A stretch of 64,000 bases of DNA from Bacteriovoracia bacterium. GTDB taxonomy: Bacteria > Bdellovibrionota > UBA1018 > CAIPTA01. Below the pieces are notes generated by a model, which worked only from the letters and a program-made list of their open reading frames with translations, was not told the origin of the DNA and made no database searches. The number at the start of each line of letters is the position of its first letter. Positions within the stretch are counted from its first letter, which is position 1. Below are positions 13,803 through 17,192 of this stretch, one piece after another. Where the stretch lies: contig JBFWVL010000001.1 in assembly GCA_050246755.1 (NCBI GenBank), positions 1,824,001 through 1,888,000 on the forward strand, written 5' to 3'. Both the position numbers and the translations under genes were made by a program.

Positions 13803-13842
13803 AAGGGGCGCTTTCTCTCGCAAGAGGGAAGGCGCCTTTTTT
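13803..13842 (+). terminator. Rho-independent terminator after ahpC
   Basis: aaggggcgctttctctc-GCAA-gagggaaggcgcc followed by a T run. Confidence 0.8.
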
Positions 13843-14899
13843 ATTTTTGGATAGCGTCGTAGTCGGGGCCTACCACGTCGGATACCGCGAGGCCTTTTGC
13901 CTCCGAGCAAACCGCGGAGATGAGGTATTTGCGGTAGTCGGCGTGGAGCTTGAGCTGTGATTTCTTTTCGCCGGCGGGTAGAGAGAATTGCTGCGCCAGC
14001 ACGAGCGGCGCCGTGTTCGTGGCTTGGGTATAAAGGCTGCAGTTGGCCGCTCGGGGCTCTTTGCGGTCGATCTTCAGCAGCACGAAAGACGGGGGCTTCG
14101 GGGTGGGATCGCGCGTGAGGAAAATGGTATTGGCCTGGCCGTAGTCCAAGGGGGTGAATTGGAAGGTTTTCGCCATTTCGAATGGATCGATTGCCGGCAG
14201 CGACTCGCGGGGCACGTTGAGGTCTGCCGGGTGAATCAGCTCTCTTGCCAGCAGATAGCGCCTTCCGGGAAAGGTGGTGGCGCTCAAGCCGAGCCGGCAA
14301 TTTACCGTGCCGACGTATTTTTTTGCCGAACCGGCGCTGCCCTCGAGAGAAAGTTCAGCTTCGGCTAAGCCATTATTGCAGACGATGAGGGCGCCCTGTT
14401 CCGTTTGGCGCAGGCTGAAATGGGTGCCGTTTTCATTCGCGCCGATGCTCAGCCCGTAGCCGACGAAGCCGATGGAAAATTTCTTCGCCTGGCTAAGCAA
14501 TTCGGCGGCGCCTTGCTGGAGCAGCAAGCCGATCACGCCGTCCTTCGCCTCGATACGCCCCGCGCTGCCTTGCCGAAAGGAAGCGCGGAAGGCTTCTTTG
14601 CATTCGAGATCGGCGCCCTGGGCTTGAACCTGAAAAGAATCGCCGGGGAGGAGCGCCTTTTTTACGCCGCCGTCGCGGAGCTGACAAACGGCCGTTACGG
14701 GAAAAATCGCGGGAAGATTTGCGTAGAGAAAAAGATGCGTTTCTCGCGAGGTATGATTCAAGATCCAGCCTTGAACCGCTCGATACTTCTCCTGCAGCGA
14801 ATCCCGGGTGGGTACGAAATCGCGCCAGCCGGCCTGCGCGGAGGAATGGAGCGTTAAAAATAGGAGCAAAAGCAGCTTCATTTTTTTCCAGTCTAGCAT
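13841..14899 (-). CDS. Secreted protein with a FecR-like beta-rich domain
   Basis: Signal peptide ending AQA. The pattern LLPGD...LLLQQG...GTHFSL...VCNNGLA resembles FecR. Confidence 0.6.
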   Translation of the reverse strand: MLDWKKMKLLLLLFLTLHSSAQAGWRDFVPTRDSLQEKYRAVQGWILNHTSRETHLFLYANLPAIFPVTAVCQLRDGGVKKALLPGDSFQVQAQGADLECKEAFRASFRQGSAGRIEAKDGVIGLLLQQGAAELLSQAKKFSIGFVGYGLSIGANENGTHFSLRQTEQGALIVCNNGLAEAELSLEGSAGSAKKYVGTVNCRLGLSATTFPGRRYLLARELIHPADLNVPRESLPAIDPFEMAKTFQFTPLDYGQANTIFLTRDPTPKPPSFVLLKIDRKEPRAANCSLYTQATNTAPLVLAQQFSLPAGEKKSQLKLHADYRKYLISAVCSEAKGLAVSDVVGPDYDAIQK

Positions 14900-14972
14900 G
14901 GGGCCTGTTTCCGGGCGGCCTGTATCTCACTGGATTCGCTGATGTATTCACTACTTCCGCAAATTTGAATAA

Positions 14973-15001
14973 TTGACTCAATTTATCGGAAATGAGATGA
15001 T
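14973..15001 (+). promoter_or_regulatory. Putative sigma70 promoter facing an intergenic region
   Basis: TTGACT-N17-GATGAT with TG at the extended -10 position. The -10 is imperfect. Confidence 0.45.
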
Positions 15002-15007
15002 GAAAGA

Positions 15008-15397
15008 AGGTAGGGTTTCAGAAGATTTGAAGCCGTTAAACCCGGCGCATAGGGCGCTAAGGCGGCGAAAGCTAGCTTCAGCGAAGGGGGATTTTCGGTA
15101 CCCACGCTCTCGAGGGGCGGTGGAATCACTGGGTTGGGGTTTTCGTGGCGAACGAGGCCTCAGGGTTACCGGAATTCAGAGGAGTAATTATGGGGGCATG
15201 GCTTCGGGCAATACCGGGGCCGGGCACCAAGATAAAAATTGTTTATAAAAATCCAGCTGCAGGCGCCTAGCGCGCATTCCGGAAGCTTCCCTTCGTGGGT
15301 TCAACTTCCGGGACGATTGATCTGATAATCATTACGCAGATTCCGATATTGATCGGAAGCAGAAAAAGGGACCCAATCCGCGGGTTCCTTTTTTTTT
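15008..15397 (+). ncRNA. Candidate structured non-coding RNA (family not recognised)
   Basis: At least five hairpins whose G-U pairs favour the + strand, lying between a putative promoter and a U9 terminator. Confidence 0.45.
15363..15397 (+). terminator. Rho-independent terminator (could also act on the - strand for suhB)
   Basis: AAAAAGGGACCC-aatccgc-GGGTTCC followed by T9. Confidence 0.85.
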
Positions 15398-15472
15398 GGA
15401 AAAGAATGCCGTTTGCGGTAGGGAGCGGAAATCAGGATCAGATCTGCGTCCGCTTTGAATGCCAACTGATTC

Positions 15473-16264
15473 TTACCGCAATATCTGCATCATCGAAGTA
15501 TGGACGTGGGAATTCGTGGCGAGCACTTCTTTGCCGTTGATCGAGAATTCCTCGCCGTTATAGCCCGTAACTCTTCCGCCGGCCTCATTCACCAAGAGGG
15601 CGCCGGCGCACACATCCCAGCTCGCGAGATTTCTCTCCCAGAATGCGTCGAATACCCCGGCGGCCACGTAGGCCAGATCGATGGCGGCGGCTCCCGGGCG
15701 GCGCACGGCCCGGGCTTCAAGGTGGGCGCGCTCGAAGCGCTCGATCTCGGGGCAGAGCTTGTCTTCGTCGCGGATATAAGCGAAGCCCGTGGTGAGGAGG
15801 CACTGAGAAAGATGATTGCGCTTGCTCACCTGCATGGGTTTCCGGTTCAGGAAGGCCCCGCCGCCTTTGGCGGCGTGGAAGGTTTCTTCCACGGTGGGAA
15901 TATAAATCACCCCTAGGATCGGCTGATTGCCGATGGCGAGCCCGATCGAAACGCAGAACATGGGAAATCCGTGCACGAAATTCGTGGTGCCGTCGAGGGG
16001 ATCTACGTGCCAAGTAGGCACGGTGGGATCGGTCTTGCCGTTGTCGCCGCTTTCCTCGCCGTGAAACTGGAATCCCGGGTAGGATTTTTTCAGCATCTTT
16101 TGGATAAGGGCTTCGCTCTTCAAATCGGCCTCGGTTACCAGGCTCGAGCGGGCCTTCTCGTGCACCGCAATTTTTTTGCGGTAGTAACGCATGAGCACTG
16201 CGCCGCCTTTGTGGGCGGCCTCGATGGCGTGCTTCTTGATCTTGGCGAGTTCGGCGGGTTTCAT
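15473..16264 (-). CDS. suhB: Inositol monophosphatase family protein
   Basis: GEES, DPLDGTTNFVHG, GAAAIDLAYVA and WDVCAG. Confidence 0.92.
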   Translation of the reverse strand: MKPAELAKIKKHAIEAAHKGGAVLMRYYRKKIAVHEKARSSLVTEADLKSEALIQKMLKKSYPGFQFHGEESGDNGKTDPTVPTWHVDPLDGTTNFVHGFPMFCVSIGLAIGNQPILGVIYIPTVEETFHAAKGGGAFLNRKPMQVSKRNHLSQCLLTTGFAYIRDEDKLCPEIERFERAHLEARAVRRPGAAAIDLAYVAAGVFDAFWERNLASWDVCAGALLVNEAGGRVTGYNGEEFSINGKEVLATNSHVHTSMMQILR

Positions 16265-16268
16265 ATTC

Positions 16269-17192
16269 TTAGAACCAGGCCATGGAGCGGCGGGCGTTCA
16301 CGTAGTCTTTCACGTACTGGCCATAGGCATCCCGCACTTTGGCCGTCACGGGGCCAAAACCTTTGGTGAAGTCCTTGCGTTTTCCGCCGGGCAGGAGGAT
16401 GGCGGTTACCGGCATTACTTCGCGGGTGGCGCTCGAAACGAAGCATTCCGTGGCGGCTTCCACGTCTTTAGGGAACATCGCGCGATCCTGGTAGGGCAAT
16501 TTTAATTTTACGGCCAATTCCGAAATCAAGGTACGGGTTAATCCGCGCAAGTTGCCGGTATTGGAGCGCGGCTCGTGCAGCGGGGTGTGAAGGCCGCCGT
16601 CGATCACGAAGGTAACGTTCGAGTTCGACGCTTCGGTGAGCTTACCGTCGAGGCTGAGCATGAGGGCGTCGTGGCCTCCGAGCTCCTTGGCTTCTGCCAC
16701 GGCGAGAATATTATTCAGGTAGTTTCCGCTTTTGATATTGGGATCCAGCGCCAGCGGAGAATTGCGGAGCGTGGCGGGCACGGCCAGCACCATCCCGGTC
16801 GAATAAAATTCCGGTTTCCAGGGCGGAAGCTCTTTGGCCAAAATAATAAAGGAGGTCTTCGTCGCGGTGGCGGGATCGAGGTCAAGGGGGCCGTCGCCGC
16901 GGCTGATGGTATAACGGATGAAAACGTCCTCTCCCTTTTTCACGCCGCTTTCTTTTACGGTGCGCATGATTTCCTGGGTAAGGAACGCGCGGTCTTGGGA
17001 AATTTTCATGCGGGCCAAGCGGGCGGAATTTTCGAGGCGGTCGAAATGCTCTTCGAGGAAGAAGGGAACGCCTTCGTAGGTGCGAGTTACCTCGTAAATC
17101 GAATCGCCGTACTGGAAACCGCGGTCGAAGATGGAGATCTTGGCCTCGGCGGCCGGGGTAATCAATCCGTTAACATTCGCCATTGCGCGCAT
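16269..17192 (-). CDS. Aminotransferase class IV (D-amino-acid/branched-chain type)
   Basis: DRGFQYGDSIYE, HFDRL, IKSGNYL (PLP Lys), EASNSN and LRGLTR. Confidence 0.9.
   Translation of the reverse strand: MRAMANVNGLITPAAEAKISIFDRGFQYGDSIYEVTRTYEGVPFFLEEHFDRLENSARLARMKISQDRAFLTQEIMRTVKESGVKKGEDVFIRYTISRGDGPLDLDPATATKTSFIILAKELPPWKPEFYSTGMVLAVPATLRNSPLALDPNIKSGNYLNNILAVAEAKELGGHDALMLSLDGKLTEASNSNVTFVIDGGLHTPLHEPRSNTGNLRGLTRTLISELAVKLKLPYQDRAMFPKDVEAATECFVSSATREVMPVTAILLPGGKRKDFTKGFGPVTAKVRDAYGQYVKDYVNARRSMAWF

Follow-up and report, generated by a model that had tools for sequence, protein, structure and literature searches.

Within the stretch of DNA analysed here (the window; 64,000 nt, from a landfill metagenome bin whose genome is 95.7% complete), positions 14973–15397 of the + strand probably encode an RNA of around 390 nt that is of the merRNA (massively expressed riboswitch RNA) type, has a disabled sensor and is still functional. 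It is likely to be this lineage's single-copy version of a c-di-GMP-riboswitch-led RNA of which nearly every genome of the class has one copy. The evidence supports an independent RNA gene, complete with promoter and terminator, that encodes no conserved protein.

The RNA lies in a gap of 573 bp (14900–15472) between two genes on the − strand: a SuhB/inositol-monophosphatase gene (15473–16264, −; PF00459, E 6.5e-72) and, on the upstream side, a 352-codon frame (13841–14899, −). The original prediction had placed this second neighbour on the − strand, correctly, and had called it FecR-like, a label for which no Pfam match was found at E up to 0.1; among the suhB loci, a relative was found only in G002, a genome of the same family, where a frame in the equivalent place is 22% identical. 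The + strand features listed in the original prediction are all present in the gap, at the positions it gave or within 1–2 bases of them. Together with those added here, they are:

14973..15001, + strand, sigma-70-type promoter: −35 box TTGACT (14973–78), 17-nt spacer, −10 box GATGAT (14996–15001) and extended −10 TG at 14993–94
15014..15034, + strand, leader hairpin: 7 bp (15014–20/15028–34), pair probability 0.64
15034..15097, + strand, remnant of a c-di-GMP-I aptamer: 5′ flank AAACCC (15038–43), GAAA-capped hairpin (15060–78) and 3′ flank
15060–66/15071–78, + strand, stem of the GAAA-capped hairpin: 7 bp with one bulge, probability in the full-length ensemble only 0.04–0.14
15092..15175, + strand, three-way-junction domain: closing helix 15093–15103/15163–15174 and intermediate hairpin 15105–15119
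15131–35 and 15135–15162, + strand, core of the junction domain: invariant unpaired GGGUU, and a long hairpin with pentaloop GGCGA (15147–51)
15179–84 and 15190–92, + strand, Shine–Dalgarno (SD)-like GAGGAG and AUG, 5 nt apart, directly after the closing helix
15190..15270, + strand, 26-codon frame: unconserved, probably not a functional product
15200..15221, + strand, hairpin inside this open frame: 8 bp (15200–07/15214–21), pair probability 1.0
15229..15252, + strand, A/U-rich stretch: predicted to be single-stranded, with a comparable stretch aligned in relatives
15277..15313, + strand, hairpin: 9-bp outer stem (15277–85/15305–13), pair probability 1.0
15341..15358, + strand, hairpin: 7 bp (15341–47/15352–58), loop AUUG, pair probability 1.0
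15363..15397, + strand, intrinsic terminator: stem 15368–74/15382–88 with one G–U pair, extendable by A5/U5, and U9 tail (15389–97)

The promoter, which scores 9 of 12 matches plus the TG, is the sole promoter-like site in 14600–15800 (shuffles gave a mean of 0.6), and would place the transcription start near 15008. The RNA, which is convergent with suhB, ends at the terminator, 76 nt short of the suhB stop codon. With both neighbours on the − strand and no same-strand gene downstream, the transcription unit stands alone. The original claim of a + strand promoter and terminator thus stands, and promoter type and architecture are both found again in relatives.

The segment between these signals folds better on the + strand than on the − strand. 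For 15005–15395 the minimum free energy is −148.3 kcal/mol on the + strand (z −3.19; 1 of 100 shuffles as good) versus −114.8 kcal/mol on the − strand (z −1.29; 9 of 100 as good), and all five hairpins that had been proposed for the + strand were found. In the full-length ensemble, the junction-domain helices, the three 3′ hairpins and the terminator reach pair probabilities of at least 0.96, and G008, another family genome, has a near-identical hairpin (CCGAU-loop-AUCGG) at the position aligned with 15341..15358. The alternative fold suggested earlier, in which 15334–41 pairs with 15442–49, did not survive: the 8-mer is perfect, but its second half is situated past the terminator, where the DNA has been replaced in two other strains, and we regard it as chance. 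A possible long-range pairing of 15045–57 with 15263–75 (11 of 13 pairs, at low probabilities of 0.09–0.21) would tie the aptamer remnant to the bases surrounding the small frame's stop codon, and the C15271U change in contig X13, described below, would add a pair to it. A CsrA-type sponge was considered and dropped, as GGA triplets, counted by eye, are about as frequent as expected by chance.

The original prediction had left the RNA unclassified. Its position and sequence instead identify it as the counterpart of a c-di-GMP-I-riboswitch-led RNA found in the same family, here comprising nine genomes of our collection, in which even the nearest relatives have SuhB proteins only 62–69% identical to that of the window. 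This relationship is not apparent to BLAST, by which the gap matched itself and nothing else among the 40 relatives (1 of 41 genomes) or the other family genomes (1 of 9); it emerged only when nhmmer and short-word blastn were applied to syntenic DNA. In nhmmer searches of the DNA downstream of suhB, the gap is similar to that of G002 (E 1.1e-5) and shows weaker, collinear similarity to those of G007 and G008. Four of seven relatives' suhB loci scanned carry a match to RF01051 (GEMM-I) at 49.2–51.9 bits (cut-off 35), in each case downstream of suhB and on the strand opposite to it, that is, in the + orientation of the window. A metagenome scan with SuhB, from which 80 loci were kept (best 68% identity), yielded nothing closely related to the lineage of the window but added two full RNAs among the ten best loci scanned (L057 and L058; full-length profile matches at E ~1e-41); in 1.5 kb of downstream DNA from each of L054, L056 and L060, the full RNA was not found. 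Across the family and the metagenome, RF01051 scores span 47–53 bits. In the class survey, RF01051 matches 33 of 41 genomes, once in each, and is not matched in the others; one match per genome is the pattern expected for merRNA.

The genomic setting is shared in part. In the window, G002, G007, G008 and the two metagenome contigs, the RNA converges on suhB with its terminator beside the stop codon. In G005, two ORFs lie between suhB and the RNA, in G006 the RNA is 11.5 kb away and in G004 it is on another contig; G003, G004 and G006 have other genes directly downstream of suhB. The insert in G005 (locus L004) consists of two overlapping ORFs of 103 and 135 codons, in a toxin–antitoxin-like layout. 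Searches of G001 and G003, two genomes of the same genus that are 90% and 76% complete, respectively, revealed neither aptamer nor junction domain; the suhB gene of G001 is located at a contig end.

The family set of RNAs, drawn from six family genomes and the metagenome contigs L057 and L058, has a common architecture in seven of eight members: promoter, leader, aptamer, three-way junction, RGGAG followed after 5–8 nt by AUG, A/U-rich stretch, hairpins and terminator. The promoter layout TTGAC-N-(15 nt)-T-G/T-(7 nt) is present in six of the seven family RNAs tested by pattern, the RNAs of L057 and L058 also start with TTGAC, and a hairpin followed by a T run ends all seven aligned relatives. 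The exception in both architecture and promoter is G004, of the same genus, in which the aptamer is present and the rest is absent: its contig 58 (L053) has a canonical aptamer (47.1 bits) but lacks both the junction domain and the promoter pattern of the family. The sensor and the 3′ domain therefore occur apart within one genus. RNAs in other families (loci L022–L051; for example in G025, G013, G016, G019 and G018) are organized differently, with a single c-di-GMP-I unit followed by a same-strand ORF that has a radical-SAM-like cysteine motif and, by motif only, looks like queE; in these units a 5′ GUGAAGAGG segment appears complementary to a 3′ CCUCUUCA segment.

The topology of the three-way-junction domain is the same in the single-sequence minimum-free-energy folds of all eight RNAs folded (window included), with closing helices of 9–15 bp whose sequences are unrelated, and in each the GGGUU and a hairpin with a GGNRA-type cap are followed by the SD–AUG element. 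The original prediction had pointed to relatives' suhB loci as the place to look for homologues and for covariation; homologues were found there, and the pentaloop hairpin covaries. This hairpin is strongly supported: it shows compensatory changes in 8 of 10 pairs, 92.4% of its cells are paired versus 22–54% in slid controls, and its covariation score was reached by none of 500 shuffles. In the window, the pair probabilities of the domain are 0.96–1.0. A model of the domain matches 6 of 127 class genomes, all six of them training sequences, with one copy in this genome (itself a training member); a lone outside match (E 0.002, 118 genomes) was weak and was taken as noise. RGGAG, 5–8 nt and ATG stand at the equivalent place in all eight family RNAs, and the ATG is invariant in the alignment. 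This 3′ domain of junction and SD–AUG was not seen in the riboswitch RNAs of other families that we inspected.

By contrast with its relatives, the RNA in the window has a truncated aptamer. A profile built from five relatives, with this genome excluded, matches the locus in two collinear blocks: profile positions 1–103 correspond to 14973–15072 (E 1.5e-5), from the promoter to the first aptamer hairpin, and positions 222–505 to 15124–15395 (E 3.3e-9), from the junction domain to the terminator. The 118 profile positions skipped between them, which take in two-thirds of the aptamer, on its 3′ side, and some of the next hairpin, are represented by 51 nt here. (A MAFFT alignment of the full RNAs misplaced the aptamer region of the window, and the profile alignment was used instead.) A family covariance model of eight aptamers scores 15034–15097 at 6.5 bits (E 0.07 in a 573-nt search): its two flanks match, the 3′ flank reading CAGCGAAGGGGG in the window and UGCCGAAAGGG in relatives, and its 27 and 33 interior positions shrink to 14 and 0 nt. 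The second aptamer helix with its tetraloop receptor was not found, the 33 model positions having no nucleotide to occupy. The CGCAAA and UUGCCG columns, invariant in all eight family aptamers, have no counterpart either; at the only alignable place, the window reads CAGCGAAGG. The CGCAAA junction and the 3′ UUGCCG contain the A and C that contact the ligand in the Vc2 structures.

These alignments are consistent with the loss of one aptamer helix together with the CGCAAAG core junction, through a deletion of roughly 50–70 nt; which of the two helices was lost is ambiguous, as the hairpin that survives is aligned one way by the profile HMM and another way by the covariance model. With a helix and the core junction gone, the RNA would hardly be able to bind c-di-GMP; its other parts are intact. 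Rfam gave no match at E up to 10 for the gap or for 15020–15180, and for 14000–16500 it gave, up to the same E, only two chance sRNA matches, both outside the gap. In the whole genome, no RF01051 match exceeds the cut-off of 35 (best 14.2 bits, elsewhere), and there is no match either to the family aptamer model or to RF01786 (c-di-GMP-II). The original prediction had set merRNA aside on the grounds that the c-di-GMP consensus did not fit. The misfit is real, but the dismissal was wrong, because the consensus fails here as a result of the truncation. The genome retains 3 GGDEF and 13 PilZ matches (relatives, 2–4 and 11–15); c-di-GMP thus remains in use in the cell, and the suhB-adjacent RNA alone would have stopped sensing it.

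Sequences from other strains confirm the truncation and provide a first view of how the RNA varies. A 75-kb contig from a study of wastewater represents strain X3 and spans 14700–15401 with 25 substitutions and one inserted base, and X13, a 282-nt metatranscriptome contig from a different study, covers 15045–15325 with 96% identity and 11 differences. Because both cross the truncated aptamer without a gap, the truncation is not an assembly error, and it is common to strains around 4% apart. The RNA of X3 has 14 differences in around 390 nt and the neighbouring coding sequence has 8 in 200 nt; divergence in the RNA thus resembles that in coding sequence and gives no overall sign of constraint. 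The promoter hexamers of X3 are unchanged, with differences at spacer bases 14982 and 14984 only. Six of its differences fall in predicted stems and five of these keep the pair: U15016C (U–G to C–G) and A15031G (U–A to U–G) in the leader hairpin, G15157A and A15174G in the junction domain, and U15073C in the GAAA-capped hairpin, in which G15062C breaks its pair in the drawn register. X13 has a compensatory double change, C15202U with G15219A, that turns a C–G pair of the hairpin 15200–21 into U–A, and one change, G15114U, that opens a terminal wobble pair. Around half of stem transitions keep pairing by chance, so the pattern in the stems is only suggestive. Past the terminator, 15402–15474 is swapped for 72 other letters in X3, and 15378–15482 for 36 letters in strain X2; similarity therefore ends at the end of the RNA. 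X13 is the sole contig on a 1-kb stretch in its metatranscriptome assembly and covers neither flanking gene, a hint of expression from a strandless contig of low depth (4.2) in a type of library that may also contain DNA. A further run, X8, possibly of RNA, covers suhB only (15467 onward) at lower identity and is uninformative on the RNA.

We weighed four other readings of the locus against the one given above. One would deny a + strand RNA altogether, taking the gap as the 3′ region of suhB with its terminator and the + strand signals as chance. We give it almost no credence: a consensus scanner did call the terminator site only in its − strand reading, and suhB ends 76 nt away, but that reading is the weaker one, with an A–C mismatch and only U5 (our guess is that the A5/U5 stem extension perhaps uses up the T run on the + strand and so hid the site from the scanner), the + strand folds better, and relatives with a bona fide riboswitch in the + orientation conserve the promoter and the whole architecture on that strand. 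It is also very unlikely that the transcript is the mRNA of a small protein, whether of a 26-residue peptide driven by the SD–AUG element (15190–15270) or of a 91-codon frame at 14973–15248. What speaks for a peptide is the strong SD-like motif, which precedes the AUG by 5 nt and is conserved in all eight family RNAs, and this much of the original proposal of an SD and a 26-codon ORF was borne out. The peptide itself was not: the frames behind the conserved AUG have 26, 20 (or 10), 7, 5, 2, 5, 7 (or 24) and 3 codons (the alternative lengths of 10 and 24 read by eye), with neither a sequence nor a length in common. The strain changes within the 26-codon frame, with codons assigned by hand, are three non-synonymous and two synonymous, and C15202U with G15219A behaves as compensation of an RNA pair. 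The 91-codon frame begins at the −35 box, and its coding conservation, which the original prediction had left as a possibility, fails in a 96%-identical strain, X3, in which the G inserted behind 15012 shifts the frame. Neither frame has a Pfam match. The proposal of a dual-function RNA is weak for the same lack of a shared peptide; if ribosomes do bind the SD–AUG element, it would be the binding that matters rather than the peptide.

Two further readings accept the RNA and turn on its missing aptamer. The deletion may have inactivated the gene, leaving a relic that drifts and whose intact parts only reflect the recency of the loss. No part other than the broken aptamer has a known biochemical activity, divergence between strains is no lower in the RNA than in the flanking gene, and two same-genus genomes, 90% and 76% complete, yielded neither aptamer nor junction. 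We nevertheless consider a relic unlikely, as the truncated form is common to strains around 4% apart, the stem substitutions mostly preserve pairs and include one compensatory double change, the RNA-library contig X13 covers the RNA alone, the promoter hexamers are identical between strains and the junction-domain helices are all intact. Alternatively, the shortened 5′ domain could be a new aptamer fold, re-tuned to another ligand. The retention of the 5′ flank, GAAA hairpin and 3′ flank would fit such a fold, as would the possible pairing of 15045–57 with 15263–75, with 11 of 13 pairs and one more in X13. Known specificity changes in the c-di-GMP-I riboswitch class keep both helices, a second example of the shortened form is lacking, pair probabilities in the 5′ part are low (0.04–0.21) and no Rfam family matches; we regard a re-tuned sensor as highly improbable. 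The reading that we prefer thus remains a merRNA-type RNA that has a disabled sensor and is kept for its other parts.

The closest known system is the merRNA of Bdellovibrio bacteriovorus HD100, described as a stand-alone RNA of 445 nt that has its own strong promoter and is among the most abundant transcripts of attack-phase Bdellovibrio, and for which the only role proposed there, as a store or sponge of c-di-GMP, is speculation (PMC3627812). No functional follow-up of merRNA was found in the literature searched. The RNA in the window shares with merRNA its stand-alone organization, a promoter of its own, a length of a few hundred nucleotides (around 390 versus 445) and the absence of a downstream gene; it is likewise a single copy in a Bdellovibrionota genome, and its relatives' RNAs begin with a c-di-GMP-I aptamer. 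It differs in that its own aptamer, the defining element of merRNA, is truncated and fails the Rfam model, and in that its 3′ domain of three-way junction and SD–AUG has been seen only in this family. The locus resembles merRNA in gene organization and ancestry, minus the aptamer. As for RF01051, the 5′ flank and a portion of the 3′ flank are recognizably derived from it, and the hairpin that can be drawn with a GNRA cap, at low probability in the full RNA, may be so too; the second helix, the tetraloop receptor and the CGCAAAG junction are missing and the score is below what is reportable (cut-off 35 bits). Having failed every sequence-based test, the locus does not belong to RF01051, and annotation as a riboswitch is unwarranted.

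A further parallel is offered by EutX of Enterococcus and Rli55 of Listeria, riboswitch-controlled non-coding RNAs that sequester a protein. The intact RNAs of the present family are analogous in that a sensor precedes an effector RNA domain rather than a gene. The riboswitch class and the effector domain are different, and in the window the sensor is gone.

These comparisons suggest how the RNA might have worked and what may be left of it. In relatives with an intact aptamer, its 3′ flank passes directly into the 5′ strand of the closing helix of the junction, and ligand binding in those relatives could therefore be coupled to junction folding or to access to the SD–AUG element. Deletion within the aptamer would have removed this coupling to c-di-GMP here, with the junction domain predicted to remain stably folded. 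The RNA would still be transcribed from its conserved promoter and ended at its terminator, and the junction domain with its exposed SD–AUG would be the working part. Most likely, although this is speculative, the 3′ domain is a binding platform for a protein or for the ribosome.

The family thus shows a riboswitch fused to a conserved, covarying domain that resembles an effector and exposes a site like those bound by ribosomes, and one lineage that dropped the sensor and kept the rest, together with the c-di-GMP enzymes and receptors. Annotation based on Rfam misses such sensor-less derivatives entirely. Tentatively, as we would put it at somewhat less than an even chance, the locus is a natural separation-of-function allele, in which the RNA has lost its sensor but is retained, transcribed and under structural constraint. 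An abundant and required truncated RNA would mean that the 3′ domain functions alone, and a silent one that the sensor is essential. Were the separation of function true, the 3′ domain would have a job independent of c-di-GMP, such as holding ribosomes or a protein, and soaking up c-di-GMP would not be the whole function of merRNA-type RNAs.
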